From positions 62,401 to 126,400 of the forward strand of contig JAJDCL010000011.1 of NCBI GenBank assembly GCA_029260875.1: 64,000 bases of DNA. The letters run 5' to 3'. The DNA is from Candidatus Saccharimonadota bacterium (GTDB lineage Bacteria; Patescibacteriota; Saccharimonadia; Saccharimonadales; OFTM59). The notes beneath the pieces were generated by a model, which saw only the letters and a program-made list of their open reading frames with translations, was not told where the DNA came from and did no database searches. Shown piece after piece: positions 1,565 through 21,849 of the stretch (position 1 is the first letter of the stretch; each line of letters starts with the position of its first letter). The position numbers and the translations under genes are program-made.

Positions 1565-2623
1565 CTAGTAACCAGTAGCTCTGAGCGCTAAAATTTGTAG
1601 GTCCCGCGCTTCATCTGCAAGTTGGCAAACTGTATCTGACCCACGGCTCACATGAACGCCTGTAGCCTGTTCAAACATAATCATACGATCAGCTTCATTA
1701 GGGTTGCCGCTGTCAAAGGCTGCCATTAGTGGCGCAACAACCACACCTTTAGGGCCAGCAATAAATTTGCCACTTTGATACGTGCCGCACACTTCAGCCT
1801 GAGCCGTGGGGATCTTAGCCAAAGCGCTTGGTTGGTTAGTATCAAAAAGGCTCAGGCCACCCCCCATCCACTCACCGTACACAGGGTTGCCGTCAGAACC
1901 GTTGCCCATAAATATATTATCTCCAGGCGACGGGGAATTAGAGGCTACAAAAACGGATTTGCTTTTTATAAACTCAGTATCTGATCCCTCTACTAGACTC
2001 AGCACGGCTAGGTCTGTATCTTCATTTTGACGTATGGACACAGCAATTTTGTTAATCATGATTGCGCGTGTACCAGGAGCTGACACTGCATATTCAAATT
2101 TGTCTGGTAGGTCTTGGGCAATGTCGGCTACATCATTATTGCCAGCTTGTCTTAAACGGTCACGTATAGGCTGTGTTACTCGATTAACTCCTGTTTGCTT
2201 ATCCGTATACGGTTCAGAATCAAATGTATGAGCTGAGGTACCAATAACATACATGTCACCAACCTTATCGTCACTAACTCGTAAGGCTGCACCCTTACCG
2301 ATGTTCTGCCAAACCTTTGCCCCTTTTGACCGAGCCAGCACATCCACTGTAGCACTGGTTAAGTTGTCTCTAATCTCTTGAGAGACCTCGACCGCTTCAG
2401 AAGCAGATTCATGCATATTCTCATGAATAGTCTCTTGCCGTGCTGGTACATCCGCCACAACACTAGGCTTTAAAGCAAAAGCCAAGACTCCTACAGCCGC
2501 CAGAGCAAGCACGTTACGACTAACCCTACTTGTTAAACGTCTGTACTCGGGCCTTTCTATTGAGTGCCTAGGTTTATGTTTTTTATCTTGGTTTTCATCG
2601 GAAATACCGATTCTTCCATCCAT
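1565..2623 (-). CDS. N-anchored hypothetical exported protein, possibly a degenerate trypsin-like fold
   Basis: The N-terminus has a basic tail and a TM (NVLALAAVGVLAFAL). GTSAHTF, DLAVLSL and GNGSDGNPVY loosely resemble the His, Asp and GDSGGP segments of chymotrypsin-family proteases, but with a non-canonical Ser region. Confidence 0.35.
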   Translation of the reverse strand: MDGRIGISDENQDKKHKPRHSIERPEYRRLTSRVSRNVLALAAVGVLAFALKPSVVADVPARQETIHENMHESASEAVEVSQEIRDNLTSATVDVLARSKGAKVWQNIGKGAALRVSDDKVGDMYVIGTSAHTFDSEPYTDKQTGVNRVTQPIRDRLRQAGNNDVADIAQDLPDKFEYAVSAPGTRAIMINKIAVSIRQNEDTDLAVLSLVEGSDTEFIKSKSVFVASNSPSPGDNIFMGNGSDGNPVYGEWMGGGLSLFDTNQPSALAKIPTAQAEVCGTYQSGKFIAGPKGVVVAPLMAAFDSGNPNEADRMIMFEQATGVHVSRGSDTVCQLADEARDLQILALRATGY

Positions 2624-2678
2624 ATAGATATATTAGCATAAGCTTTACTAAAAGTCAAGATTAGAATATGTAGTTGGT

Positions 2679-4412
2679 TTACCATGTGCCCCAGCGCTGG
2701 TTGCTGGCACCTTTGAAGCAGTCCCAGATCTGTAAGTCTGTCCCGTTTGCAGTGTCATTATCCTTTACATCCAGGCATTTACCTGTAGCGCTTGAACGGA
2801 TAGTGCCATCACTATTCCATTGCCAGCGTTGGTGAGAACCACCATTACACGTGTAGATTTGCACATCTGAGCCGTTCCTGGTTTTGCCCCCTTCCACTTC
2901 AAGACATAGTCCACTAGCAGCAAGTCGGATCGTGCCATCAGTTGCCAAGCCCCACTTTTGATTGGAGTTACCTGTGCAGTCCCAGATCTGAGTATCTTTA
3001 CCTCTAGTTGTTCCGTCGGCGTCCATACAGCGACCACTGGCGTGACTTCTTATTACATATTGTGCAACTGCGGGAGGTTTATCGGTAGACGAAGAGGCCT
3101 TGGTTGTCGTAGTTTTTCCGTCAGGAGTAGTTGTGGTGCAAGTGCCATTCTTGCAAGATGTTTTGGTAGAGCCACTGTAGCTGGTGCCTTGGGACTGGCC
3201 CCCTATAGAAACCCCGCCCTGTGAACCCTTAGAGCCTTGTGAGCCACTCGTGCCAGATGTGCCTGAAGCACCCTGTGAGCCAGGAGCCCCAGGTGAACCG
3301 GGCGAGCCTTGAGTAGCTTTACCGGGGTTGCTAGCACCAGGCTGGCCAGGATTGCTCGCGCCAGGCTGACCGGCCTGACAGCCACCAACACAATTACTAG
3401 ATCCAGACTGACCGGGAAGTCCAGGTTGAGGAGCAGGTATCGGACGGCCAGCACCGATTATATCTTCCAGGGCACCGCCACCGCCAGCTTCCTCTAGGTC
3501 TACAATCTTATTGAACTCTGCCCACGTTGCGGCGCCCACTTTACCGTCACAGGTCCACCATGTTGTGGGCGCTCCCAATACGCATTTAGACCCGGGAACG
3601 CTGCGGTTATACTGCATAAATCGCACAAGATCGGCAGTCCGGCCATCATATATGCCCGTTTGAGGGACATTTTCAAGACCCATAACATTCTTTAAGAAGC
3701 CTTGTAGCACCTTGACGCACGGGTGGCTTGATCTATGATCAAGCGTCACTCTGCTGCATGTAGTCATGTTCCAGCTAGTTGGAGCGCTACTTGAGAGGGT
3801 CTGTGAGGGAGCACCAGAACCACTGCCCCCGACCGGTGTACAGGATGAATAGGAGCGTCCGGGATTTATGGGTGCACCGTTTTTTCGTATCTCAAAATGT
3901 AAATGGGCAGGCCCAGCTCCAGTTTCACCAGAATATGCAATTAGTTCCCCTTCGGAAACAGACCCAGTTTTTGCAATGCTACTTAGGTGCGCAAAACGAA
4001 ATGTATAGTTTCCAGATGTCAGGTCTGCCGATATACCATAACCTCCGTCCGGGCCCCTGCTAACAGTACCACTCCTGGGGGCGAAAATAGGCGTGCCGAC
4101 TGTAACGCCCGCACTGTTCGCGCCAAAATCAACACCTGCATGTTTACGACCATTGGGTCGGCCAGCTCCAAAACCGCCACCGTTATAATCTGTATTATTG
4201 CTATGTGCGGGCTTACCTTTTAACGGACATGTCATTGCAACTGTTTCTGCACGGCTAACATAAACCGTGGCAACACCAATAACAGCAAACAAGGTTATAT
4301 AAGCCAGCTTACGGATTCCTAAGGGCAATCCTTTCAGCATCAATAGACCCATAATTGATTGTCTGCTAGTTGAACGACTAATGGTTGTTTTGCGCTTGAT
4401 TTTGGGAGACAT
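2679..4412 (-). CDS. N-anchored M23/LytM-family metallo-endopeptidase fused to a collagen-like Gly/Pro/Ser spacer and a C-terminal ricin-B lectin domain
   Basis: The M23 signature is HAGVDFGA...G.PI.A...G.V...............HLHFEI. The middle has GQPGASNPGQPGASNPG collagen-like repeats. The C-terminus has repeated QxW beta-trefoil motifs (NQKWGL, HQRWQW, NQRWGTW). Confidence 0.8.
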   Translation of the reverse strand: MSPKIKRKTTISRSTSRQSIMGLLMLKGLPLGIRKLAYITLFAVIGVATVYVSRAETVAMTCPLKGKPAHSNNTDYNGGGFGAGRPNGRKHAGVDFGANSAGVTVGTPIFAPRSGTVSRGPDGGYGISADLTSGNYTFRFAHLSSIAKTGSVSEGELIAYSGETGAGPAHLHFEIRKNGAPINPGRSYSSCTPVGGSGSGAPSQTLSSSAPTSWNMTTCSRVTLDHRSSHPCVKVLQGFLKNVMGLENVPQTGIYDGRTADLVRFMQYNRSVPGSKCVLGAPTTWWTCDGKVGAATWAEFNKIVDLEEAGGGGALEDIIGAGRPIPAPQPGLPGQSGSSNCVGGCQAGQPGASNPGQPGASNPGKATQGSPGSPGAPGSQGASGTSGTSGSQGSKGSQGGVSIGGQSQGTSYSGSTKTSCKNGTCTTTTPDGKTTTTKASSSTDKPPAVAQYVIRSHASGRCMDADGTTRGKDTQIWDCTGNSNQKWGLATDGTIRLAASGLCLEVEGGKTRNGSDVQIYTCNGGSHQRWQWNSDGTIRSSATGKCLDVKDNDTANGTDLQIWDCFKGASNQRWGTW

Positions 4413-5834: not shown

Positions 5835-6302
5835 TCAACGACTCACTGAGCCACTTGGCGCGCTTGGGGCGCTTGGGGCACTAGATTGGCCTGTAGTACC
5901 GGGAGAGCTTGGAGCCCCGGGAGAGCCCGGTGTCCCTGGCGAACTAGTACCCGGGGTGCCGCTACCAGGCGTACCGGGGGTGCCCGTGCCATTGCTACCA
6001 GAGGTGCCGTTACAACCGCTGCCCGTACAGCTACCACTACCACCCGCACCGCCTGAACCGCCGTTAGTGCCTGGTTGCCCAGGGGCACCATTACTACCGC
6101 CACTAGTAGGGGCAGGTGGGCACAAACTGGCTGCCAGTACGCTAACCACAAAATACAAACCGATTAATGCAAAAGCTGTTACAAAAAGAGCCTTTTTGGG
6201 CGATTTTTTAAGACTTGCAGTAAAACGCGACAGATTCTTGCTTGACCCTGCGGTGGTTTTACGACGATTTGACGTGGTCTTCTCTATGCTTTTTTTAGCC
6301 AT
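5835..6302 (-). CDS. N-anchored Gly/Ser/Thr/Pro-rich collagen-like low-complexity surface protein
   Basis: MAKKSIEKTTSNRRKTTAGSSKNLSRF...ALFVTAFALIGLYFVV, followed by GAPGQPGTNGGSGGAGGSGSCTGSGC and an SSAPSAPSAPS tail. It shares the GGAGGSGSCTGSGC block with 417..1454. Confidence 0.55.
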   Translation of the reverse strand: MAKKSIEKTTSNRRKTTAGSSKNLSRFTASLKKSPKKALFVTAFALIGLYFVVSVLAASLCPPAPTSGGSNGAPGQPGTNGGSGGAGGSGSCTGSGCNGTSGSNGTGTPGTPGSGTPGTSSPGTPGSPGAPSSPGTTGQSSAPSAPSAPSGSVSR

Positions 6303-7831: not shown

Positions 7832-8311
7832 CTAAATTGACTTACAAGTTTTAGTGCCATTTTTTGTCGTGCAAACTGTCCCTGTGGAGGGGGCGCTAGG
7901 GGCTGAGGGGGCGCTGGGGGCGCTGGATTGACCAGGCGCACCAGGAGCTGAATTGCTGCCGTTGCTGCCGTTACTACCAGGGGCCGTTTTCACATCTTCT
8001 CCTCGGCCGTCTGTGCCTGGCTGACCCGTTGAGTCTTTACCTGACGTACCGCTGCAATTATTGCTGCTGCTTACAACGCAAGTATTGTCCGTCCCTGTGG
8101 CACCATCCGCGCCTTTACCGTTTAGCCCTTCAGGTGGGGGGCATAGTGCAAGAGCGCCAATCACTAGTAACGTACCGGCCGCTGCAAAACCCAGAATGAA
8201 TAATGATTTTTTAGGTGAGCGCCTAGCCCATAATCCTACACGCTGCAAACGACTGGTAGGTTTAGTTGTTTTAGGTTTCTTGTAGCTTGTTTTTGTTGGT
8301 CTTTTTGCCAT
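7832..8311 (-). CDS. N-anchored Gly/Ser/Thr-rich surface protein
   Basis: MAKRPTKTSYKKPKTTKPTSRLQRVGLWARRSPKKSLFILGFAAAGTLLVIGALALCPPP. It shares the C-terminal SSAPSAPSAPSAPS block with 5835..6302. Confidence 0.5.
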   Translation of the reverse strand: MAKRPTKTSYKKPKTTKPTSRLQRVGLWARRSPKKSLFILGFAAAGTLLVIGALALCPPPEGLNGKGADGATGTDNTCVVSSSNNCSGTSGKDSTGQPGTDGRGEDVKTAPGSNGSNGSNSAPGAPGQSSAPSAPSAPSAPSTGTVCTTKNGTKTCKSI

Positions 8312-8313
8312 GA

Positions 8314-9543
8314 TTATCTACCTATAAAACCCATTAATCTTGTATACATAAATTCACCCAGTGCCGTAACCCCGGTTGTTTTAGGACACAGAGCTTTTTT
8401 TGCCTTACTATTGCTGTTACTCCTGGACCCCCCGCTTAACGTACTCGAACTAATAAGGCTGCGGGGAGGCCCACCCGAATCATACATCGGCTTATTATTA
8501 ACTAAGGGTCTGCCGCCTTTGCAGTCAGTGTTTAAACAGTCATTATAAAGTTGAAAAATTGTTTTTCCAGTTATACTTTTCAGAAGCTCGTCAGAATATG
8601 TGTCATTTCTGAGGGCAGTGTGTAGTTTCTTGACAATATTTTTATCGTGTTTTGTGAGATATTTTAGAAAGGCCGCCCCACAATCGTAACCAGAGCTATA
8701 GTCTACATCAAAGCAAGAGCTAGTACGATCTACACCCAATACTTGTGGCACATAATCCGCCATTCCTTCAACTAGCCACTTTGGATATTGAGGTGTTCCG
8801 TACGATTTATAGCTCTGCACCATGTGTGTTATTTCATGACTCAATAGACGCGTATTCGAGCTATCACTAAATGTGCGCACCGTGTCAATGTCAAGATAGG
8901 CCGCTGCTCGATCCCAGTAGAACACGCAGCCTATCGCCCCCTCGCAAAGTTTTTCGCCTGTTTTAAAATTTGGAGGCAGATAGCTAAAGCTGTAGTCATC
9001 AGCGAGTTTGCCTAGGATAATAATGTATGGTGATCGATAAATAGAAGAGCTGAGCTGTTGTTCTACTCTCGGAAATATATTCTTGCAGTTTGCAAGAAGC
9101 TTCTCCGCTTTAATCTTCATGCTAAGATCTTGGCTATAATCAACCCAGCACATTCCGTTATCAATGACTCCTGGTTTACCCGGCATAACAGGGTCATCTA
9201 CCACAACAGTGCCCGGTGTTTGTTTTGAGGCTGGGCTGGCATTGCCTGGAGCGCCACCTCCTTTATTTGAGCCACTGACGGTGAGCGTAGAATTGTTCTT
9301 GCTTGCCTCAGAAGTCTTCTTTTGCCAAGGCAAGGTTACCTTTTTGCCAAAAAACGTAAACCCGTATTGATTTGCGCCAGCAGTGCTAGACCACAAGGAA
9401 GAGACAATCATATAGCCACCTAAAAACATAAAAGCGAGAGCCACAAAAACAACACTACGCTGCCTAAAGCTAGTCCTTAGATTTCTAAGTTTCTGGGATT
9501 GTGAATAGCTGAATGGTTGGTTGGCGAATCTTTTGTTGGCCAT
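8314..9543 (-). CDS. N-anchored putative zinc metallopeptidase of the basic-secretory-protein (BSP, PF04450-like) type
   Basis: HEITHMVQ (HExxH) followed by WLVEGMADYV, then GYDCGAAFLKYL and LLKSITGKTIFQLYNDC match the BSP-family pattern HE.THV.Q...EG.ADYV...GY...A.FL.Y. The N-terminus has a basic tail plus TM. The start at 9543 is preceded by aaaaagggtcaaa; the alternative start is 9573. Confidence 0.55.
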   Translation of the reverse strand: MANKRFANQPFSYSQSQKLRNLRTSFRQRSVVFVALAFMFLGGYMIVSSLWSSTAGANQYGFTFFGKKVTLPWQKKTSEASKNNSTLTVSGSNKGGGAPGNASPASKQTPGTVVVDDPVMPGKPGVIDNGMCWVDYSQDLSMKIKAEKLLANCKNIFPRVEQQLSSSIYRSPYIIILGKLADDYSFSYLPPNFKTGEKLCEGAIGCVFYWDRAAAYLDIDTVRTFSDSSNTRLLSHEITHMVQSYKSYGTPQYPKWLVEGMADYVPQVLGVDRTSSCFDVDYSSGYDCGAAFLKYLTKHDKNIVKKLHTALRNDTYSDELLKSITGKTIFQLYNDCLNTDCKGGRPLVNNKPMYDSGGPPRSLISSSTLSGGSRSNSNSKAKKALCPKTTGVTALGEFMYTRLMGFIGR

Positions 9544-9618
9544 TTTGACCCTTTTTCTGTTTGTATTTATCACGCAGTGAGATAGTACCTCGTACGATAT
9601 ATGGCTATATTAAACGAG

Positions 9619-10671: not shown

Positions 10672-12186
10672 CTACTTGGCAAATTCTATGGCGCGGGTTT
10701 CGCGGATTACATTTACCTTAATAGTGCCTGGATACTGCATAGTAGATTCGATCTTGGTAGCTACATCGCGAGCCAGCTTGATGGCGCCGAGGTCATCAAT
10801 ATCTGTTGGTTTTACGAAGATACGAACCTCACGGCCAGCACTAATAGCATATGCCTTTTCGATACCATTAAAACCAAGCGCAACGTTTTCAAGATCTTTC
10901 ATGCGCTCGGCAAAGTTCTCGGCAGAAATATTGCGCGCGCCAGGACGAGCAGCACTCATAGCGTCTACCACACGAACAATGTGTGCCTCTGTAGTAGTTG
11001 CATCTACATCATCGTGGTGAGCTTCAACCGCGTGACAGATATCTTCGGGCACGCCGTACTTACGAAGAGTGTCAGCGCCAATATGATGATGCTTGCCCTC
11101 AACTTTATGTGTTAGGGCCTTGCCTATGTCATGCACTAATGTAGCGTACTTAACCGTCTTGACGTTAGCACCTAGCTCCTCAGCGATGATCCCCGCCATA
11201 TGGGCCATTTCTGTACTGTGCTTGAGCACGTTTTGGCCGTATGATGTGCGGAATTTAAGCTCACCAAGTAGCTGTAAAACTTCTTTGGGAATGCCGATAA
11301 TACCGACTTCGCGGGCAGCGTCTTCACCGGCTCGGACAACTTCTTTTTGGACTACGGCCTGGGCTTTTTCTACAACCTCTTCAATACGGCCGGGGTGAAC
11401 ACGGCCGTCTTTTAGGAGCATCTCAAGAGCTTGGCGGGCTACTTCGCGTCTCACTGGGTCAAACGAACTCAGGATAATCATGCCTGGGGTGTCGTCTACC
11501 ATAATGTCCACGCCGGTGGCGCGCTGTAAGGCCTGAATATTACGCCCCTCTTTGCCGATAATACGGCCTTTCATTTCTTCATCTTCCAGCTTTACAGCCG
11601 TGACCGTCCGTTCTGCCGTAACCTCGCTGGCCATGCGCTCCATTGCCTCAACTATAATAACCGCCCCTTTTTCTTCGGCGGTCTCCCGAGCTTCGTTCTC
11701 GAGCTTTGATATAAGCCCAAGCAAGTCTTGGCGTATGTCTCGCTCTGTCATTTGCATAAGCTTGCCGGCGGCATCTTCTTTGGTAAGCTTAGCGATTTTT
11801 TCTAACTTTTCTTGTTGTTTGACACGAATAGAGCGGATTTCGTCTTTGAGCTGTTCAGCCTCGGTTTCACTGGTACGTAATTTTTCTGCGCGTCTGTCTA
11901 TGTCGTCTAGTTTTTTATCCAAGGATACTTCGCGGTCCAGTAAGCGCTGCTCGATTTCTTTTATTTCTTTGCGACGCGTGGCTTCTTCTTGGCGCGCCTT
12001 TTCTGATACTTTGGTTGCTTCTTCTCGAGCTTCATCTAGGGCTTTCTCAGCCTCTTTTTTGGCCTTTTTTAATTCCTTCTCGGCCGCCTCTTCTGCGGAC
12101 CCTAGTTTGGTTTTGGTCATGACGTTGTTTGCGACAAAGCCCGCACCAACGCCGGCCAATGCCAGCACAATGGTAATTGGATCCAT
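10672..12186 (-). CDS. rny: Ribonuclease Y (N-terminal TM, coiled coil, KH and HD domains)
   Basis: The start MDPITIVLALAGVGAGF at 12186 follows gaaaggaacaaac. The protein has KH-like GKEGRNIQALQRATGVD and HD-domain VLKHSTEMAHMAG...LVHDIGKA. Confidence 0.9.
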   Translation of the reverse strand: MDPITIVLALAGVGAGFVANNVMTKTKLGSAEEAAEKELKKAKKEAEKALDEAREEATKVSEKARQEEATRRKEIKEIEQRLLDREVSLDKKLDDIDRRAEKLRTSETEAEQLKDEIRSIRVKQQEKLEKIAKLTKEDAAGKLMQMTERDIRQDLLGLISKLENEARETAEEKGAVIIVEAMERMASEVTAERTVTAVKLEDEEMKGRIIGKEGRNIQALQRATGVDIMVDDTPGMIILSSFDPVRREVARQALEMLLKDGRVHPGRIEEVVEKAQAVVQKEVVRAGEDAAREVGIIGIPKEVLQLLGELKFRTSYGQNVLKHSTEMAHMAGIIAEELGANVKTVKYATLVHDIGKALTHKVEGKHHHIGADTLRKYGVPEDICHAVEAHHDDVDATTTEAHIVRVVDAMSAARPGARNISAENFAERMKDLENVALGFNGIEKAYAISAGREVRIFVKPTDIDDLGAIKLARDVATKIESTMQYPGTIKVNVIRETRAIEFAK

Positions 12187-12386
12187 GTTTGTTCCTTTCA
12201 GCCTACGGTCAGCCGACATCACTATCACTTCTTTAGTCGCACTTTACCGTAGAAAATCAAAAATTAAATTGTAAGAATTGTGGCACTTCAGGTGCCGACG
12301 GATTTTGCTCCCAAAAAGCTGCATAATCCTACCCTTAACTATACGCGGAATTAGTCGCTCAGGTCAATCCATGCAAGAATATATTC

Positions 12387-13355
12387 CTAGTTGTCAGCAG
12401 GCATAGATGAATCTCTTTGAATGGCGTAGACTACCAGGCGCTGATTATAGGTGTTAGATGTAGCATCATACGAGCCAGCCTCAGTGATCAAATTAAGTCC
12501 CGGCAACCCCGGTACGGCTGTTGCTAGCATGGGCTCCAGCGGGTCAACATCCCTAAAGGCTTGGAGTTTTGCTACATAGTATGTGAAGATTTTACCATCG
12601 CCCGCCTCTAGCCTAAGTTCGTCCCCTGGCTTTAAACTTGTTATATCATGAAAAATACCGGGCTTGCTTGGGCCAGACATGTGGCCAGTCAAAACCACCG
12701 CACCAACCTCTCCAGGCTTGACACTACTTTCATACCAGCCGACATCATATATATTCGAAGGCAATCTGATTTCTGTTTCCGTACCAACGCCCACTCTGCG
12801 GACACGTGCGGAAAGCCCCATGTCATCTATGTGCATAATTCGCGGCAAATTACTGGCAACCTGATAACTCTGTATATTTGTGGGTCGACGTTCACTGATC
12901 TCGTTACTAGTATCTAGCATAGCTTCTACACTAACCCTGCTATGAGACCTATCGGCTTCTGCTTGCTTGCTGGAATGTGCACTGCTTAGTAATATGACTG
13001 AAACAAACAAAACCACAGCCAAACAGATCACTGGTAGGTACATCTTTAACTTGTTTAGACGGGGAAATGTTGGGCCCGGGAACCGCCTGAACTTAATATC
13101 AAATATGTTATCGGAACGCTTTAGCTGAACAGGCAGGCCTGAGAAGCGAGATAGTTTAGGAGGCGTACCGGACAATGATTCAAGGTATTCGCCCTGGTTT
13201 GCCGGCACGTATCTTGACGCACGCTCTCCTATACCGTCAATACTACGAGGCTGAACACGCTGAACAGAACGCCGGTAATAGGGCGAGGGTGAGCTGGTGC
13301 GCGGTTCTGGCGTGCCAACAAGTACTCTGTGCTGACGTGGCCGGTTTGATGCCAT
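12387..13355 (-). CDS. Sortase-fold membrane protein lacking the catalytic cysteine (TLxTC Cys replaced by Glu)
   Basis: The N-terminus has a long basic region plus a TM (MYLPVICLAVVLFVSVILL). The domain aligns with SrtA: IHIDDMGLSARVRRVG, VVLTGHMSGP (His), GLNLITEAGS in place of LTLITC, and NQRLVVYA (Arg). The DNA reads ATC ACT GAG GCT at the expected Cys codon. Confidence 0.55.
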   Translation of the reverse strand: MASNRPRQHRVLVGTPEPRTSSPSPYYRRSVQRVQPRSIDGIGERASRYVPANQGEYLESLSGTPPKLSRFSGLPVQLKRSDNIFDIKFRRFPGPTFPRLNKLKMYLPVICLAVVLFVSVILLSSAHSSKQAEADRSHSRVSVEAMLDTSNEISERRPTNIQSYQVASNLPRIMHIDDMGLSARVRRVGVGTETEIRLPSNIYDVGWYESSVKPGEVGAVVLTGHMSGPSKPGIFHDITSLKPGDELRLEAGDGKIFTYYVAKLQAFRDVDPLEPMLATAVPGLPGLNLITEAGSYDATSNTYNQRLVVYAIQRDSSMPADN

Positions 13356-13423
13356 AATTTTGTTAATTTTTGAGGTTAATGTTCCTGCCTATGACTATAA
13401 ACTTGCGTGATTTTATGTCAAGG

Positions 13424-13816
13424 CTAGCGCTTGGGCTGGGTGATATGGGCATCCGCTCCATAATCTGGGATAACTTGCTTGTCGTTTTTACCCGCAAGCA
13501 GCAGTTTGATTCCCGTAAGCCCCCAGTTCTCGCTTGATGTCCCAACAATCGGAACACCTAGGCTGTCCGCCATAGCGTTAGCCGTGGCAATGCCTATTCT
13601 TAGGCCAGTAAAGCTACCCGGACCCTTATAAACCACTATACCTTGCACGTTCGCAAAGGTTTTAGATTTTGCTTTTAAAATTGTGGCTATTTGCAAGTGA
13701 ATCGTCTCAGCAAGCTTGCGATGCGCCAGCCAATCAAACCCGTCCAGCAGCTCTTCGTCTTCGTATAGACCAAGTTCAGCTTCCGGCTTATCTGTCCGGA
13801 CAGCAAGTATTAGCAT
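13424..13816 (-). CDS. tsaB: tRNA threonylcarbamoyladenosine biosynthesis protein TsaB (short form)
   Basis: The GPGSFTGLRIGIATA motif and an N-terminal YeaZ-like domain. Confidence 0.75.
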   Translation of the reverse strand: MLILAVRTDKPEAELGLYEDEELLDGFDWLAHRKLAETIHLQIATILKAKSKTFANVQGIVVYKGPGSFTGLRIGIATANAMADSLGVPIVGTSSENWGLTGIKLLLAGKNDKQVIPDYGADAHITQPKR

Positions 13817-14276: not shown

Positions 14277-14825
14277 TTGAAGTATACTAGAATTGCCATG
14301 CTACAACTCAGTGCGACATTTACTAACAAACCTATTATGAGCTTGCGGACCGGAGCACGGGTTGCAACGGTAGCCAGCCCTATCATTAATCCGAACAATC
14401 TTAAAATTGAGGGGTTTTACTGTCAAGACATCCGCACCCGCCAAAAGTTGGTTCTGCTCACTCAGGATATTCGCGACATTATAAGTCAAGGCTTGGTCGT
14501 TAATGATCATGATGTGCTCTCTGAACCTGAAGATCTTATACGCCTTAGAAAAATCATGGAGATTGACCTACAGATTATGGGGATGCCTGTTGTCACCGTA
14601 GACAAGCATAAAATAGGTAAAATTAACGACTACGCAACTGATACTCAGACCTTGTACATCCAAAAACTTTATGTAGCCCAACCATTGATCAAATCGTTGA
14701 GTGGCGGTCAGCTGAGCGTTGACCGAAGTCAAATCGTAGAGATCACCAACCGCAAGATCGTCATCCAGGAACCTCTACAGCCAACCAAGGCGGGCATCCG
14801 GGTAACGGCGCCCGTAGCTTCATAA
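14277..14825 (+). CDS. Hypothetical protein, possibly PRC-barrel-like; start uncertain (alternative Met at 14337)
   Basis: ORF only. The two Val/Ile-rich segments are weakly PRC-barrel-like. Confidence 0.3.
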   Translation: MKYTRIAMLQLSATFTNKPIMSLRTGARVATVASPIINPNNLKIEGFYCQDIRTRQKLVLLTQDIRDIISQGLVVNDHDVLSEPEDLIRLRKIMEIDLQIMGMPVVTVDKHKIGKINDYATDTQTLYIQKLYVAQPLIKSLSGGQLSVDRSQIVEITNRKIVIQEPLQPTKAGIRVTAPVAS

Positions 14826-17046: not shown

Positions 17047-18801
17047 ATGCGAGTCTCTGATGCCTTTGTTGAGCAACTATTAAAAAAATCCGGCAAGGTC
17101 ACCGACCAACAGCTGGCAGATTTGCGTGAGCAAGAAAAAAACGAAAAAAAGCCACTACAAGATCTGGCTGTTTCATCTAGCCTGATCTCCGAAGCCGAAC
17201 TTACCAAGGCCTACGCAGAAGAGATTGATGTGCCCTTTGTTGAGATAGACACAAAAGCCTTATCTAAAGAACTCTTGCATTTAGTACCCGAACGCATAGC
17301 CAGACAGTACCGTGCGGTTTTATATGGGGTTGATAAGAATGGCAACAAACAGCTAGCAATGGCCGACCCTGACGACGTTCAGGCGATTAGTTTCTTGCAG
17401 AAACAGCTAGGTTCGGACTTAAGAATATATGTGGCAACACAGTCAAACATCTTGACTGCTCTTGATCAATACCGTGGCAATATTGGTACGGAGATCAGTA
17501 AAGTAGTCTCTGAAAGTGACGGCGACGGCGACGGCGACGAAGAGGTTAGTGAAGAGGATCTAGCTGAAGATTCGCCCATTGCTCAGACAGTAAACCTGAT
17601 AATTGAATATGCTGTAAACTCTGGCGCCAGTGATATTCACATTGAACCACGGGAAAAGTTTGTTCAGATTCGCTACCGTATTGACGGCGTTTTGCGAGAG
17701 GCAAACAAGCTGCCAAAGCGGACTTTGGCAGCTATGGTTTCACGTATCAAGATTTTGTCTGGACTTAAGATTGACGAGAGGCGTGTGCCACAGGACGGAC
17801 GCTTCAAGCTGAATATGAACGGCCGTATATTTGCCTTTCGGGTGTCAACCTTGCCTGTGTCCGATGGCGAGAAGGTTGTTATGCGTGTTTTGGATGAATC
17901 GAGCGACCCTTTAACGCTTGAAAAGCTTGGTTTTTGGGGCTTGGCACTTGAGCACATTCAGTCTGCAATCAAGCAGCCGCATGGAATGATTTTAGTTACT
18001 GGTCCGACTGGTTCGGGTAAATCCACAACCCTTCATAGTGTGCTTAACATTTTGAACCGGCCTGATATCAATATTTCTACGGTTGAAGACCCTGTTGAAT
18101 ATCGGCTGGAGGGCGTAAATCAGACACAGACCAACAACACCGCTGGCATGACTTTTGCAAACGGCCTGCGGGCGCTGCTTAGGCAGGACCCTAATGTCAT
18201 TATGGTTGGCGAGATTCGTGACGGCGAGACAGCTGGACTAGCTGTACAGGCGGCTTTGACCGGGCATCTCGTCTTTTCAACACTACACACCAACAATGCT
18301 GCTACGTGTTTGCCACGCCTTCTAGATATGAGTATAGAGCCGTTCCTAATCGCTTCAACTGTGCGCGTCGTAATCGGGCAACGTCTGGTGAGGCGGCTTG
18401 TTCCGGAGGAGTGTGAACAATACACACCAGACGACAAAGAGCGCAAAGAGATTGAGCGAGCTTTTTCCATCAAGACAAACGAGGATTGGAAACGGGTACT
18501 CGAGCTGGCCTCTGAGGCTCAGACCGCGTTTGATAGGCCTAAAACAAGCAAGCTGACCTTTTGGCGTCCGAAAAAGGATCTGGGCGAAGGCCATACAGGC
18601 TATAGGGGCCGAATGGGCATTTACGAGGTCCTCAGCGTATCTACCGAGATACAAAAGATGATTGTGGCAAACGCCACCAGCGAGCAGATCCAGAGCGAGG
18701 CAGTAAAAGAGGGTATGGCAACCATGCAGCTCGATGGACTAATCAAAGCAATGTTGGGCATGACTTCAATAGAAGAAATATTAAGAGTAACCAGGGAATA
18801 G
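17047..18801 (+). CDS. pilB: Type IV pilus assembly ATPase PilB (GspE family)
   Basis: N-terminal T2SSE_N-like domain, Walker A GPTGSGKSTTL, and GspE motifs (RQDPNVIMVGEIRD). It contains an in-frame (GACGGC) repeat that encodes DGDGDGDEE. Confidence 0.9.
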   Translation: MRVSDAFVEQLLKKSGKVTDQQLADLREQEKNEKKPLQDLAVSSSLISEAELTKAYAEEIDVPFVEIDTKALSKELLHLVPERIARQYRAVLYGVDKNGNKQLAMADPDDVQAISFLQKQLGSDLRIYVATQSNILTALDQYRGNIGTEISKVVSESDGDGDGDEEVSEEDLAEDSPIAQTVNLIIEYAVNSGASDIHIEPREKFVQIRYRIDGVLREANKLPKRTLAAMVSRIKILSGLKIDERRVPQDGRFKLNMNGRIFAFRVSTLPVSDGEKVVMRVLDESSDPLTLEKLGFWGLALEHIQSAIKQPHGMILVTGPTGSGKSTTLHSVLNILNRPDINISTVEDPVEYRLEGVNQTQTNNTAGMTFANGLRALLRQDPNVIMVGEIRDGETAGLAVQAALTGHLVFSTLHTNNAATCLPRLLDMSIEPFLIASTVRVVIGQRLVRRLVPEECEQYTPDDKERKEIERAFSIKTNEDWKRVLELASEAQTAFDRPKTSKLTFWRPKKDLGEGHTGYRGRMGIYEVLSVSTEIQKMIVANATSEQIQSEAVKEGMATMQLDGLIKAMLGMTSIEEILRVTRE

Positions 18802-18802
18802 T

Positions 18803-20026
18803 ATGCCAACATTTAAATACACAGCAATTGACAAAACAGGTAAGCGTGTAACAGGCACGACCGAAGCAGCAAGCGCTGCTGTTGCAACCGCCAATCTTAA
18901 GTTGCGTGAACTGCGCCCTATTGAGGTTGCGCTAGCAAAAAATGGAAGCCTGGTGAGCAAACTGCCCTTTGGGCCGGGCAAGAAAAAAGTTAAGTCTAAA
19001 GACCTGGTGGTTTTCACCAGACAGCTTGCGACTATGATAAATGCCGGCGTGCCACTTGTAAGGTCCTTAGCAACTTTGCAGGTTCAAACCGAAAACCCAA
19101 ACTTTAAACAGCATATAGTTGAGGTCACTAAGGAAGTAGAGGGTGGTGCAACTTTTGCAGATGCACTTGAAAGGCATTCGGTAGTATTTTCGCCGATTTA
19201 TATAAATATGGTCAGGGCCGGTGAAGCGGGCGGTATTTTAGACGCAATCCTGAAGAAGCTCGCCACTCAGCAAGAAAAAGACGAAAAGATCAAAGGTAAG
19301 TTTAAAAGCGCCATGACATATCCGATCATCCTGCTGACCATTACTACGCTGGTTTTTTTGGCATTGATGGTCTTTGTTATGCCAAAGATAGGTAAAATCA
19401 TTCAGGATCTGGCCGGGCCTAGTGCCGAGTTACCCCCCCTCACAATAGTTATGCTTGGCATCAGCAACTTCCTGGTTGCTAGGTGGTATGTACTCCTTGG
19501 CATTGGCGTAATTGCGGGCGCAGTACTATCACGATACATAAGCACGCCAGGGGGGCGACGAAAGAAGGATAAGATTCTTTTGAAATTGCCTGTTATCAAA
19601 ACTGTTATCAAAAAGGTCGCTATAGCCCGTTTTGCCCGTATTTTTGCATCGCTTATGAGTGCTGGAGTTACGGTTATTGATTCGATTGAGGTAACTGCTA
19701 AAGCTATTGGCAACAGTGTGATTGAAGAAGAACTAATGGCAGCCTCTAAAACAGTCGCAAATGGCCAGCAACTATCCGTACCAATTAGTGCAAGCAAGGT
19801 CTTCCCCCCTATTGTGGGGCAGATGCTATCTGTAGGCGAAGAAACCGGTAAGACAGATGAGATCCTGGTGAAAGTTGCTGATTTTTACGAGGATGAAGTG
19901 GATGTAGTTGTAGATAGTCTTAGCTCTATACTGGAGCCTATTATGATCGTAGTAATGGGTACATTGGTCGGTCTTATAGCTGCCAGCGTGATCGGGCCAA
20001 TCAGCAATCTTTCCAATCAGATATAG
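18803..20026 (+). CDS. pilC: Type IV pilus platform protein PilC (GspF family)
   Basis: Two GspF repeats, the N-terminus MPTFKYTAIDKTGK, and TM segments. It is adjacent to pilB. Confidence 0.9.
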   Translation: MPTFKYTAIDKTGKRVTGTTEAASAAVATANLKLRELRPIEVALAKNGSLVSKLPFGPGKKKVKSKDLVVFTRQLATMINAGVPLVRSLATLQVQTENPNFKQHIVEVTKEVEGGATFADALERHSVVFSPIYINMVRAGEAGGILDAILKKLATQQEKDEKIKGKFKSAMTYPIILLTITTLVFLALMVFVMPKIGKIIQDLAGPSAELPPLTIVMLGISNFLVARWYVLLGIGVIAGAVLSRYISTPGGRRKKDKILLKLPVIKTVIKKVAIARFARIFASLMSAGVTVIDSIEVTAKAIGNSVIEEELMAASKTVANGQQLSVPISASKVFPPIVGQMLSVGEETGKTDEILVKVADFYEDEVDVVVDSLSSILEPIMIVVMGTLVGLIAASVIGPISNLSNQI

Positions 20027-20192
20027 CACACCACCCGAAGACCTTACACATATAGACCTAATAAATAAACCACACCTAATGCACAGGGAAAAGTATTGCG
20101 CGATATGAAACATGTGATAGTGTATAACCATAAGCTGTAAAAAGCTTGAAATACTAATTACAATTTACAAATAAGAAGGGTGGGCATTATAA

Positions 20193-20681
20193 ATGTTCAA
20201 GACACTTAAAAAAGCACAAGACGGCTTCACGATTATCGAACTTTTGATCGTAATCGCGATTATTGCTGTTTTGGCAGGGCTCGTACTTAACAACTTCCAG
20301 GGTGCACAGGCAAAGGCTCGTGACACACAACGTTTAACCGACATAAACAACATACACAGTAAACTAGAAGAATTTTACAACGAGAAGGGTTTTTACCCTG
20401 ATACTTTTGAAGCAGATGATTTCCCTGGTATCGACGAGGATAGCCTAATAGACCCTGATGGTGCAGAGATAGTCAAAAGCGCACCAGTGGCTAACGAAGC
20501 TGGAGCTACAGTAGAACCGGACAGTATAGACGAGTACATTTACATACCATTCCCTACGAGCTGTACTACTGTAAACGAAGACTGTGAGGGTTATGTCCTA
20601 AAGTCTTATATCGAAAAGCCAACCGCTTCTACGACAAACCCATATGTCAAAAAGGGATTGAACAACCCTGCAACCCCTTAG
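20193..20681 (+). CDS. pilA: Type IV major pilin (prepilin with class III signal)
   Basis: KKAQDG|FTIIELLIVIAIIAVLAGLV is a prepilin cleavage and methylation motif with Glu5. Confidence 0.8.
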   Translation: MFKTLKKAQDGFTIIELLIVIAIIAVLAGLVLNNFQGAQAKARDTQRLTDINNIHSKLEEFYNEKGFYPDTFEADDFPGIDEDSLIDPDGAEIVKSAPVANEAGATVEPDSIDEYIYIPFPTSCTTVNEDCEGYVLKSYIEKPTASTTNPYVKKGLNNPATP

Positions 20682-20705
20682 TTTGAGCTTTTAAAAAGCT
20701 TTTCA

Positions 20706-20748
20706 GAGAACCCTGCCAAGTGCTGAAACGGCAGGGTTCTTTTGTTGT
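20706..20748 (+). terminator. Rho-independent terminator after the pilin gene
   Basis: agaaccctgcc / ggcagggttct is an 11 bp stem followed by tttgttgtt. Confidence 0.7.
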
Positions 20749-20787
20749 TGGTTATGCTATAATTTCTCTAAAGCAAAGTGGGCCTTA

Positions 20788-21849
20788 ATGAACAAAATCC
20801 TCTTTTATAAAGACAAAGCAGTATTTGGACTTGATATCGGCTTTAGCAGTATAAAAGTCATGCAGATTGAGCGTGTAGGCAAAAAACGTGTAGTCGGTGG
20901 CTACGGTGTGGTCAATTTTGACCCCAGCGCTGTCGTGGATGGTGTTATTAAGAACCCTGAACTGCTTGCAAAGTCAGCGTATGAGTTATTTAAGAAAAAT
21001 TTAGTTGGCGATATAACTACTCGTCGCGTTGCATTAGCTATCCCCGCTGTTCGCACATTTAACCGCACCGTGCAACTACCAAAGATGGGTCGTAAACAAC
21101 TGGATCAAGCTATCAGGCTAGAAGCAGAACAATACATTCCCCTCCCCCTAGATAGCCTGTACCTAGATTACGAGATAATAAGACAAACCGACGAAGCACT
21201 AGAGCTGCTGGTCGTCGCCACACCACGAACCATAATAGACTCTTACATATCATGGATTCGCCTAATAGGGCTAGAGGTGGCCGCCATTGAAACAACTATC
21301 GGTTCTGGCAGTCGGTTATTTGTCCAAGCAGAAGACAGTAGCGTACCTACTGTACTCATAGATTTTGGGTCAGTGTCTTCTGACATTACGGTCTACGATC
21401 AAACCCTCGTTGTAACCGGTACAGTGCCGGGCGGGGGTGATAGCTTTAGTAGCCTGATCGCTGACTCTTTAAACGTTACTAAGCAAGAGGCACACGTGAT
21501 CAAAACAAAATATGGCCTGGGGGTTAGCAAAAAACAGAAAGAAATATCCGACAGCCTTTCACCTCTCTTAGAGCAACACCTTAAAGAAATACGGCGCATG
21601 ATTCGTTACTATGAAGAACGGTCTGATACGGATCGCAAAATTGGCCAGGTAGTTACCATGGGCGGTGGGGCTAATATGCCAGGCCTGTCAGAGCACCTCA
21701 CAAATCAACTTCGCTTGCCGGTTCGGATGTGCAGCCCTTGGCAAAAGCTAAACTTTGGCGGGCTGCAGCCACCAAGCTCTGTGGAGAAGTCTATGTATAT
21801 AACGGTCGCTGGCCTGAGCCTAATAGAACCGGGCGAAATATACGCATGA
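20788..21849 (+). CDS. pilM: Type IV pilus assembly protein PilM (actin-like ATPase)
   Basis: FGLDIGFSSIKVMQIE and the actin/HSP70-fold pattern. It overlaps pilN with an ATGA junction. Confidence 0.85.
   Translation: MNKILFYKDKAVFGLDIGFSSIKVMQIERVGKKRVVGGYGVVNFDPSAVVDGVIKNPELLAKSAYELFKKNLVGDITTRRVALAIPAVRTFNRTVQLPKMGRKQLDQAIRLEAEQYIPLPLDSLYLDYEIIRQTDEALELLVVATPRTIIDSYISWIRLIGLEVAAIETTIGSGSRLFVQAEDSSVPTVLIDFGSVSSDITVYDQTLVVTGTVPGGGDSFSSLIADSLNVTKQEAHVIKTKYGLGVSKKQKEISDSLSPLLEQHLKEIRRMIRYYEERSDTDRKIGQVVTMGGGANMPGLSEHLTNQLRLPVRMCSPWQKLNFGGLQPPSSVEKSMYITVAGLSLIEPGEIYA

Follow-up and report, generated by a model that had tools for sequence, protein, structure and literature searches.

The question raised by this locus is what function is left to a sortase homologue in which the catalytic cysteine has been replaced. 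Sortases are textbook cysteine transpeptidases, and the transpeptidation reaction is defined by a thioacyl intermediate, which needs a thiol. In the window analysed here, a 64,000-nt stretch of a Saccharibacteria (CPR) genome, one complete open reading frame encodes a sortase-like protein in which the catalytic histidine and arginine are accompanied by glutamate instead of cysteine (Table 1). Such a triad departs from the rule stated in a review (PMC8225981) that all sortases carry a His-Cys-Arg triad, and searches of the full-text literature found no description of a natural Cys-less sortase family.

Table 1. Features of the sortase paralogue and its surroundings (positions within the 64,000-nt window).
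Feature	Position	Strand	Description
Cys-less sortase paralogue, complete ORF	12387..13355	-	322 aa, ATG start, triad His-Glu-Arg, labelled 'SrtE-type'
Predicted cytoplasmic N-terminal tail, residues 1–105	13041..13355	-	basic, mostly disordered, conserved islands
Predicted single transmembrane helix, residues 106–128	12972..13040	-	Kyte-Doolittle maximum at 105–125; AF2 helix 107–133
Predicted extracytoplasmic linker, residues 129–162	12870..12971	-	conserved motif SEISERRPTN; pLDDT low over 129–145
Sortase beta-barrel domain, residues 163–313	12417..12869	-	pLDDT mostly >90; Foldseek matches are sortases
His225 codon CAC	12681..12683	-	catalytic-His position (VVLTGHMS); invariant in 28/28 aligned homologues; codon checked
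Glu292 codon GAG	12480..12482	-	nucleophile position (GLNLITEAGS; LNLITE for LNLITC); codon checked
Arg306 codon CGC	12438..12440	-	catalytic-Arg position (NQRLVVYA); invariant in alignment A1; codon checked
tsaB	13424..13816	-	TsaD-family, 130 aa, Pfam PF00814; conserved upstream neighbour marking the locus
rny (RNase Y)	10672..12228	-	Pfam RNase_Y_N, KH, HD; conserved downstream neighbour
Promoter-like site TTGACA-16-TATAGT	13394..13421	-	11/12 consensus matches, 39 nt upstream of the start codon

The product is 100% identical to a protein in public data (P0001), and its N-terminus, M-x-x-x-R, is common to 12 members of the clade of Glu-bearing homologues described below (45–67% identity to the product). 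The succession of a basic tail, one hydrophobic helix and an extracytoplasmic domain suggests a type-II membrane protein that obeys the positive-inside rule, and the predicted helix following the basic tail corresponds to the N-terminal anchor of sortases. The tail contains 20 Lys and Arg versus 7 Asp and Glu residues (pI 11.5), and is modelled by AF2 with a pLDDT of about 50 except for a short helix at residues 54–61. Within the clade alignment several islands of the tail are kept, namely Y26, DG at about 40–41, PAxQxEY[IL]xSLS at 51–61, LSR at 67–69, and F85, and in the linker A134, S142, E144, E152, E155, R157, and P158 are invariant. The first-pass annotation of this DNA had pointed to an unusually long (~110 aa) basic cytoplasmic region; its basic character holds, but its length is common: the 237 Cys-bearing relatives have tails with a median of 106 aa, and for the 33 Cys-less relatives the median is 98 aa. 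A cytoplasmic tail of about 100 aa is a family-wide trait and nothing special to this protein.

Membership in the sortase superfamily follows from a match to the Pfam model PF04203 with 53.9 bits (cut-off 26.6; E = 2e-14) over residues 174–311 and from the beta-barrel fold. All of the best 50 Foldseek PDB matches listed were sortases, with E-values of about 1e-9 and target-normalised TM-scores of 0.52–0.69; together with the high confidence of the AF2 model over the domain, this confirmed, at the level of the predicted structure, an intact sortase fold. Among class models, class F (NCBIfam NF033748) scored best with 88.7 bits, compared with 38.5 bits for class E and 20–28 bits for class D, while the class A model gave no match to the product. 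The alignment with class A/E sortases proposed in the first-pass annotation was dropped on these scores, and the protein is best described on sequence grounds as class-F-like, closest to class F though below the NF033748 cut-off of 166 bits.

The assignment of the triad rests on alignments of homologues. A profile of the clade searched against PDB sequences matched a single sortase (4d70), and this only around the His, leaving the nucleophile column outside the alignment; a quick pairwise alignment to an approximate Staphylococcus aureus SrtA sequence was gapped at the motif and carries no weight here. In the 28-sequence alignment A1, all 15 more distant relatives carry LNLI[TS]C at the site of Glu292, and Cys occupies this column in 141 of 174 aligned sequences, while His225 and Arg306 are invariant in both A1 and a second alignment, A2. 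The TLxTC cysteine of sortases is thus replaced in the window protein, as the first-pass annotation had reported along with the GAG codon and the retained His and Arg. Its statement that the mature domain is free of cysteine is also correct: the sole cysteine of the protein, C111 (TGT, 13023–13025), lies within the predicted membrane helix. The location of C111 in the bilayer and its lack of conservation across the clade rule it out as a stand-in nucleophile.

Glutamate at this position is a property of a whole clade. LNL[IV][TS]E was found in 13 out of 13 members, and the nearest homologues sharing the same genomic position all carry Glu. Of the outcomes that the first-pass annotation had named as refuting its reading, neither a Cys in these homologues nor a predicted fold unlike that of sortases was observed. 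These data bear directly on the trivial explanation that the actual codon is TGY, the gene encodes an ordinary sortase, and the glutamate is an assembly or sequencing error. TGY and GAG differ at all three codon positions, and Glu is also present in 12 homologues that come independently from other samples and assemblies, encoded by GAG (window and L001) or GAA (L003); no observation in support of an error was found, and this explanation, refuted by the two lines of evidence just given, has a negligible probability. Three further sites that are highly conserved in Cys enzymes are changed in the Glu clade: D223->T (Asp in 84%), R251->T (Arg in 74%), and M273->L (Met in 96%).

The genomic position of the paralogue is fixed between tsaB and rny in the Saccharibacteria loci where these neighbours were detected: tsaB lies 36–340 nt upstream in several lineages and rny 100–220 nt downstream in related loci. 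The gene has stayed at this one locus in lineages whose RNase Y proteins share only about 80% identity. The true start of rny in the window is probably the ATG at 12186 (MDPITI...), because the homologues are 504 aa long. The promoter-like site upstream of the paralogue is a weak lead, since such sites are no more frequent in the region than in shuffled sequence; the promoter and terminator scan found no terminator at the gene.

Glutamate is only one of several replacements found at the tsaB–rny locus. In homologues from other lineages, the nucleophile is replaced by Ser, Ala, Thr, Val or Tyr, and His or Arg is missing as well from some of them. Examples are the triads HAQ (L014), HVR (L029), YYR (L024), and YYH (L013), in which the residue at the site is unable to serve as a nucleophile; HSR and HTR forms were found among the homologues as well. 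Twenty further Cys-less sequences, identified in a set comprising the best 150 representatives and earlier matches, have S, A, H, Y, F or W at this site, and 10 of these 20 lack His or Arg too. Among the other Cys-less lineages Ser is the commonest replacement, and a Ser nucleophile is conceivable in principle. Class-F-like sequences from Patescibacteria run to about 10,000 matches.

In contrast to these Cys-less forms, many Cys-bearing homologues adjoin a recognisable substrate gene, coding for a PATR beta-helix protein with a C-terminal xP[N/D]TG motif followed by a membrane helix and a basic tail. After deduplication, 27 of 27 judged homologues adjoining such a gene have His-Cys-Arg, the sorting signal being [AVSTP]P[ND]TG, and in no case among the judged homologues was a Cys-less form the only sortase beside a substrate. 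Homologues with no adjacent substrate gene comprise 9 Cys and 7 Cys-less forms, compared with 27 and 0 for those with one (Fisher p = 3.6e-4, uncorrected for phylogeny). As judged from gene neighbourhoods, this shows that the true sortases of Saccharibacteria pair with PATR beta-helix proteins and would recognise xP[N/D]TG rather than LPxTG.

Two members of the Glu clade, L097 and L101, have a cassette in which the order is Glu-sortase, substrate, and Cys-sortase; the substrate, ending with ...APNTG, is thus flanked by both sortase forms, with the Glu paralogue directly upstream. This cassette was found with the clade members P0012 and P0011 in a search for second sortases. Most members of the clade, including that of the window, have no substrate gene nearby. 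No second sortase or substrate homologue occurs within the 64-kb window, and no second sortase was present among the matches listed for clade contigs of 926, 128, and 127 kb, the latter being a weak negative. At this locus, the lineage of the window has lost the substrate and the Cys-sortase and has kept the Glu form. The role of a sorting-signal receptor, suggested in the first-pass annotation, is plausible in L097 and L101, where the paralogue stands beside a substrate and a true sortase, but both of these are absent at the window's locus.

The loss of the substrate gene raises the possibility that the gene is a decaying relic, a formerly dedicated sortase that has lost its substrate, is drifting towards a pseudogene and has no function now. 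The correlation between loss of the substrate gene and loss of Cys is in line with this view, as is the fact that the paralogue is the fastest-evolving of the genes compared between the window and the Glu-clade locus L001 (67% identity over the whole protein, versus 75–94% for the other seven). However, the fast evolution is limited to the tail, with 41% identity and a dN/dS of about 0.19, while the domain is 86% identical and has a dN/dS of about 0.04 at a pS of 0.70, near saturation of synonymous sites. None of the 13 clade members has a broken reading frame, about 76 positions do not vary within the clade, and the gene has been kept at one locus in genomes that are small, one member (P0008) being on a 926-kb contig. 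In the pair L097 and L101, the domain of the Glu paralogue is 87% identical, compared with 81% for that of the Cys sortase of the same genomes. These values point to strong purifying selection on the domain rather than to a pseudogene; they largely refute the relic explanation, which we consider highly improbable.

The product therefore combines the two sequence hallmarks of a pseudoenzyme, the loss of an essential catalytic residue (Cys to Glu) and maintenance of the gene by purifying selection. Sortase transpeptidation would be impossible for it, since no thioacyl intermediate can form without a thiol, and this is the reason for reading it as a pseudo-sortase. With a probability of roughly 0.55, we propose that this sortase paralogue has been conserved without catalytic activity, as a module for binding or scaffolding. 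Replacement of the thiol nucleophile by Glu, with His and Arg kept, would leave the fold and probably also the peptide-binding groove in place; the protein could then serve as a membrane-anchored module in the handling of cell-envelope proteins, and its conserved cytoplasmic tail might tie this module to some partner. The binding or scaffold role and the link to a partner, like the absence of catalysis itself, are inferred.

A different possibility is an active enzyme with altered chemistry, in which Glu292, together with His225 and Arg306, would carry out hydrolysis, as a general base acting on water, or a Cys-independent acyl transfer, with a stem peptide of the cell wall or a peptide resembling a sorting signal as its target. 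Chemically, Glu is able to act as a general base. The His, Glu, and Arg are invariant in 13 sequences down to 45% identity, with Glu kept through a synonymous codon change, and the strand LNLITExG is wholly invariant within the clade; neither the two retained catalytic residues nor this strand is obviously needed structurally, which fits a site still in use and speaks, weakly, against a pseudo-sortase. This invariance says little either way, because about 40% of the domain positions are invariant and the clade is fairly shallow. Also in favour of an enzyme are the very strong selection on the domain, its conservation on a par with that of the true sortase when the same two genomes are compared, and the location in L097 and L101, where the gene directly downstream codes for a sorting-signal protein. 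Against an enzyme stand the homologues at the same locus with Ala, Val, Tyr, Phe or Trp at the site, several of which lack His or Arg and yet are retained, an indication that the conserved role is independent of a catalytic site; the weakly supported His-Ala-Gln sister group; the three additional changes at positions near-universal in Cys enzymes; the absence of a substrate gene near most clade members, including that of the window; and the failure of literature searches to reveal a sortase-fold enzyme with a carboxylate nucleophile. On balance we regard altered chemistry as unlikely, and a more explicit version of it, in which His-Glu-Arg would be the working site of a hydrolase or a Cys-independent transpeptidase or ligase acting on envelope proteins or peptidoglycan, with the His-Ser-Arg of sister lineages as a parallel serine version, as slightly more doubtful still. 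Of the two options left by the first-pass annotation, a pseudo-sortase or new chemistry, the comparative data thus lean towards the non-catalytic one, because Ala, Val, Tyr, Ser or Thr occupies the site in the same-locus homologues, some of which have lost His or Arg.

On the neighbour-joining tree, the Glu clade is recovered with 100% bootstrap support and is separate from the substrate-linked Cys sortases; its sister group has His-Ala-Gln, with a bootstrap of only 41%. The deep nodes of both Rny-based and domain-based trees have bootstraps of 2–40%, values that do not distinguish one loss of Cys from many. Saccharibacteria paralogues apparently lost the nucleophile more than once. A recent duplication of the Cys sortase next to it does not account for the gene, since the two domains are only 49% identical and fall into separate groups of the tree. 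The gene is rather an old paralogue of class-F-like Saccharibacteria sortases, with a deep paralogy to the true sortase.

The best class model for comparison is provided by the class F sortases, of which SrtF of Cutibacterium/Propionibacterium acnes has been characterised (Di Girolamo et al. 2019, as cited in PMC8225981 and PMC13251363). The window protein shares with them the type-II topology, the TGH and RLVVYA motifs and the fold, and its domain is 36–43% identical to Cys-bearing Saccharibacteria proteins named 'class F sortase'; it differs in the replacement of Cys by Glu, in a score of 88.7 versus 166 bits, in three changed conserved residues, and in the lack of an adjoining substrate in the window. 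A second comparison is with the substrate-linked Cys sortases of Saccharibacteria (for example P0047 in L097, P0017 in L008, and P0025 in L006), which belong to the same phylum, occupy the same tsaB...rny neighbourhood and have tails of about 100 aa like the Glu paralogue, with 49% domain identity between paralogues of the same genome. Unlike the Glu paralogue, they keep His-Cys-Arg, are always paired with a PATR xP[N/D]TG substrate and form a group apart on the tree.

Nucleophile-less paralogues with a function are known outside the sortases. SipA/LepA, an inactive signal-peptidase homologue, is needed for pilus assembly in Streptococcus pyogenes, and the iRhom pseudoproteases are catalytically dead paralogues that serve as chaperones or scaffolds. 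Like them, the window protein is the paralogue of a processing enzyme associated with the membrane, lacks the nucleophile and has kept its fold under purifying selection, and in some genomes the Glu paralogue is located beside the active enzyme and its substrate. It differs from them in fold and family, and in that the Glu paralogue is more widely retained than the pair of active sortase and substrate.

Cys-less paralogues have been retained at a fixed housekeeping locus in genomes of very small size, and selection on them matches in strength that on the true sortase. This implies that in the cell envelope of these episymbionts the sortase fold has an unrecognised function, probably a non-catalytic one, by which sortases would join the enzyme families with functional pseudoenzyme members. 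If the His-Glu-Arg triad were a working site, it would give the sortase (C60) fold its first catalytic type other than cysteine. Automatic annotation labels the Cys-less proteins 'sortase' or 'class F sortase', and because of these labels the surface-anchoring capacity of genomes is overstated.

The three catalytic motifs proposed in the first-pass annotation for the Cys-less sortase homologue (hereafter the Glu-sortase) were all found in the minus-strand gene, with the codons listed in the table. A search covering 5.8 billion proteins returned one identical public copy and 12 relatives with 45–67% identity (with the window protein, the Glu clade), and all of them carry Glu at the nucleophile position in an LNL[IV][TS]E motif, which settles the question about orthologues raised at that stage; LNLI[TS]C was found in all 15 more distant relatives (identity of about 43% or less). 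His225 and Arg306 are invariant in the 28 aligned sequences. This Glu is encoded by GAG in the window and in its closest relative, Candidatus Saccharibacteria bacterium isolate OFTM277 (L001), and by GAA in the related locus L003. An assembly error is effectively excluded, since TGY and GAG differ at all three codon positions and Glu recurs in the 12 relatives. Three other residues, almost universal among Cys enzymes, are also replaced in the Glu clade (Asp223 to Thr, Arg251 to Thr, and Met273 to Leu). In a profile search over 1.84 billion representatives the clade was compact, comprising two representatives at 50% identity, after which the score fell from 496 to 243 bits.

Table. Coordinates and catalytic residues (in the order His, nucleophile, Arg positions) of the Glu-sortase, its homologues in loci of related genomes (L numbers), their substrates, and other window features
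Feature	Location	Strand	Details
Glu-sortase ORF	12387..13355	-	322 aa, ATG start
His225	12681-12683	-	CAC, VVLTGH
Glu292	12480-12482	-	GAG, GLNLITEAGS
Arg306	12438-12440	-	CGC, NQRLVVYA
His-Ala-Gln	L014		tsaB-rny position, no substrate gene
His-Ser-Arg	L015, L016, L081, second copy in L022		tsaB-rny group without substrate gene
Tyr-Tyr-His	L013:9812-10699		tsaB-rny position; intact 295-aa ORF
Tyr-Tyr-Arg	L024		tsaB-rny position, no substrate gene
His-Val-Arg	L029		tsaB-rny position, no substrate gene
His-Thr-Arg	L046		tsaB-rny position, no substrate gene
Substrate	L006:4472-5956		paired with true Saccharibacteria sortase
Substrate	L008:4272-5996		paired with true Saccharibacteria sortase
Substrate	L011:8153-9727		paired with true Saccharibacteria sortase
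Substrate	L097:11058-12767		paired with true Saccharibacteria sortase; PATR repeat
rny ORF as listed	10672-12228	-	518 aa, GTG start
Promoter-like site	12367-12338		between Glu-sortase and rny
182-aa ORF	14277-14825	+	between tsaE and recX
419-aa ORF	8314-9573	-	PF04450
Small ORF	5835-6302	-	low-complexity C-terminal half
Small ORF	7832-8311	-	low-complexity C-terminal half
Four ORFs	17047-21849	+	584, 407, 162, and 353 aa

Residues 174–311 of the Glu-sortase match the Pfam Sortase domain (PF04203) with 53.9 bits against a cut-off of 26.6. Among the NCBI sortase class models, class F scored highest (88.7 bits, well under its cut-off of 166), followed by class E (38.5 bits) and class D (20–28 bits), while class A gave no match, at odds with the class A/E assignment made initially. 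In the AlphaFold2 model, computed from an alignment of 28 homologues, pLDDT is mostly above 90 at residues ~165–315, which follow a mostly disordered N-terminal tail and a helix at 107–133. The 50 best Foldseek matches in the PDB are exclusively sortases (classes C, D, E, and A; E ~1e-9), bearing out the expected sortase fold. A single hydrophobic helix (residues 106–128) is the predicted membrane anchor; like the fold, the domain, and the catalytic His and Arg, it is among the features defining the sortase superfamily, while the defining Cys is replaced by Glu. The only Cys, C111 (TGT), lies in this helix, so the mature domain is indeed free of Cys, as first described. The Glu-sortase is clearly derived from class-F-like sortases, its best-scoring class, but does not belong among the sortase enzymes proper, since it lacks the Cys and falls below the class-F threshold. 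CPR genomes are rich in sortases (PMC6744442), and what class F sortases do in the cell has been called unknown (PMC13251363). A full-text literature search (pseudo-, inactive, or non-catalytic sortase; sortase and pseudoenzyme; also with Saccharibacteria) turned up no account of a naturally occurring sortase family without Cys.

The long basic N-terminal region pointed out previously is real (residues 1–105, with 20 K+R versus 7 D+E and a pI of 11.5) but not peculiar to the Cys-less form: a simple hydropathy rule puts the median length of the tail before the helix at 106 aa for 237 Cys-bearing relatives and at 98 aa for 33 Cys-less ones. Such a tail is common to this entire Patescibacteria sortase family. 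Its conserved islands read PAxQxEY[IL]xSLS...LSR in Glu-clade proteins, and most of the remaining Cys-less members have PxLPRQxRSxVLxR.

In a family alignment of 174 sequences (the 150 best representatives plus earlier matches), the His-Cys-Arg triad is present in 141 and His-Glu-Arg in 14, the window sequence and its identical copy included. The 20 further Cys-less members carry Ser (7), Ala (6), His (2), Tyr (2), Phe (2), or Trp (1) at the nucleophile position, and 10 of them also lack the His (Tyr or Gln instead) or the Arg (Gln, Lys, or His). His-Cys-Arg is retained in every homologue adjoining a substrate gene. About 25 such loci were found beyond the four in the table; the substrates are secreted proteins of ~300–970 aa, often about 500–600 aa. 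In the four whose complete sequence was read, the C-terminus runs from ...GGDGNDVVLT... through [AVSTP]P[ND]TG and a hydrophobic helix to a basic tail; one of them (L097) contains the PATR repeat PF12951. The first motif position is usually Ala, Val, or Ser, versus Leu in the classical LPxTG. Homologues wedged between tsaB and rny with no substrate gene are mostly Cys-less; Cys is still present in L017 and L019, located between these genes, and in L018, where only rny is seen. Once near-duplicates and loci of insufficient length had been removed, 27 Cys and no Cys-less homologues had an adjacent substrate gene, versus 9 and 7, respectively, with none adjacent (Fisher p = 3.6e-4, the loci being treated as phylogenetically independent).

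Several further sortase-like proteins were noted. In the L013 homologue, from another Saccharibacteria lineage, all three catalytic residues are gone (His to Tyr, Cys to Tyr, and Arg to His). Another subtype of Cys sortase (LNLVTCQG), with lower scores, has partners of ~310–340 aa with [LF]PNTG (L039, L041, L047, and L074). Directly downstream of the Cys sortase in L023, a 466-aa ORF (2453–3853) has a weak degenerate sortase-like domain (102 bits) in which the aligned positions hold neither His nor Cys. P0201, a 557-aa protein from a Dehalococcoidia MAG, is an unusual sigma factor-sortase fusion, in which an ECF sigma-70 factor (PF04542, PF08281), a Cys-rich anti-sigma-like segment, and a Gly/Ala-rich hydrophobic region accompany a C-terminal sortase domain whose His-Cys-Arg triad is intact.

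In the window, the Glu-sortase gene is preceded by recA, recX, a conserved 182-aa ORF, tsaE, and tsaB, and followed by rny and ymdB; these neighbours assign the window to Saccharibacteria. The order tsaE-tsaB-Glu-sortase-rny is shared by L001/L009, L003/L004, L010, L098, and L099, that is, by every Glu-clade locus on a contig reaching far enough; the sequences of L005 and L100 stop with the sortase gene and display the tsaB side only. A tblastn search of the 64-kb window with substrate and Cys-sortase proteins matched the Glu gene alone, and no sorting-signal protein was found in the window. The substrate and Cys-sortase pair has here been lost or was never present.

A fuller arrangement was observed in two Glu-clade members, P0012 (L097, a 117,730-bp JGI contig) and P0011 (L101): tsaB, the Glu-sortase, a 569-aa PATR protein, a Cys sortase (P0047 or P0202, LNLITC), and rny, with tsaB visible in L097 only, since L101 starts at the Glu-sortase gene. 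The PATR protein ends with ...SVPAAPNTGFRL, a hydrophobic helix, and RRLQRVNAK. In L022 (21–2740), a substrate gene (...APDTG...), a Cys sortase (406–1380), a 91-aa ORF, the His-Ser-Arg copy (1763–2740), and rny follow one another, showing directly that Cys-less and active copies occur together as paralogues. L020 and L025 contain tsaB, substrate, Cys sortase, and rny with no Cys-less copy; L012 has the first three, its contig stopping within the sortase gene, and in L008 the pair lies immediately downstream of rny. Among the matches listed, close P0047 orthologues are confined to the P0012 and P0011 contigs plus a single 3.3-kb contig, with none on the 926-kb, 128-kb, and 127-kb contigs of other Glu-clade members.

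The Glu and Cys copies within one genome share just 49% domain identity. On a bootstrapped neighbour-joining tree built with the three catalytic columns left out, the Glu clade is monophyletic (100%), with the His-Ala-Gln group as its weakly supported sister (41%), and P0047 clusters with further Cys enzymes linked to substrates. This marks the Glu form as an old paralogue rather than a recent copy of the neighbouring Cys sortase. Cys-bearing sequences nested in Cys-less groups, such as P0031 with the His-Ser-Arg pair P0037/L015 (79%), suggest that Cys may have been lost more than once, the deep nodes of this distance-based tree being weakly supported.

Between the window and L001, the sortase domain retains 86% protein identity at almost saturated synonymous sites (pS 0.70; dN/dS ~0.04), while the tail is 41% identical (dN/dS ~0.19). 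In L097 and L101, the one genome pair allowing comparison of both paralogues, the Glu domain is 87% identical and that of the true Cys sortase 81%. The domain dN/dS and this comparison indicate that the Glu-sortase is maintained by selection, and a decaying relic is effectively excluded. The strongly conserved barrel and short tail islands likewise indicate a retained function.

Sortase catalysis needs a thiolate, which forms a thioacyl intermediate with the threonine of the sorting signal (PMC8225981); with its Cys replaced, the Glu-sortase cannot form this intermediate. We propose, with a probability of roughly 55%, that it is a pseudo-sortase acting as a membrane-anchored binding or scaffold module. 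A non-catalytic role of the tsaB-adjacent paralogues is favoured by the inert Ala, Val, Phe, Trp, and Tyr at the nucleophile position in sister lineages, by the loss of His and Arg in several of them, and by the real Cys sortase beside every substrate gene found; the three swapped residues of the Glu clade point the same way. Alternatively, His-Glu-Arg could be a working site, for example that of a hydrolase, as the strict invariance of these residues throughout the Glu clade might imply; yet about 40% of all domain positions are invariant there, making this weak support, and we consider such an enzyme unlikely. The proposed pseudo-sortase would act through its sortase groove on the outer side of the membrane and its tail on the cytoplasmic side; it may at first have worked beside a sortase and substrate pair and become useful enough alone to outlive both. 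Its ligand could be a sorting-signal-like peptide, a cell-wall precursor, or a partner protein. The closest functional analogies may be inactive paralogues of envelope peptidases with a chaperone role, such as SipA of streptococcal pilus assembly and the iRhoms.

Several neighbouring features of the window were also recorded. The true start of rny is probably the ATG at 12186, since its homologues have 504 aa and begin with MDPITI; the sortase-rny gap would therefore be ~200 nt, and a promoter-like site lies within it. The 182-aa ORF, on the opposite strand and with no Pfam match, is kept at the same place in all compared Saccharibacteria loci reaching it (49–85% identity). Two small ORFs gave false positives in the sorting-signal scan. 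Their C-terminal halves are long Gly/Ser/Pro/Thr-rich low-complexity stretches containing or ending with SAPSAPSAPS, and L001 and L009 have a tail of this kind too; a Pfam scan of the 7832-8311 ORF gave no match. The 419-aa ORF matches the BSP family ('peptidase of plants and bacteria', E = 3.8e-15). In size and position, the four ORFs adjoining recA on the opposite strand resemble genes of the syntenic loci L001 and L097 whose annotation is type IV pilus (PilB-like T2SSE, PilC-like T2SSF, N_methyl pilin, and PilM).
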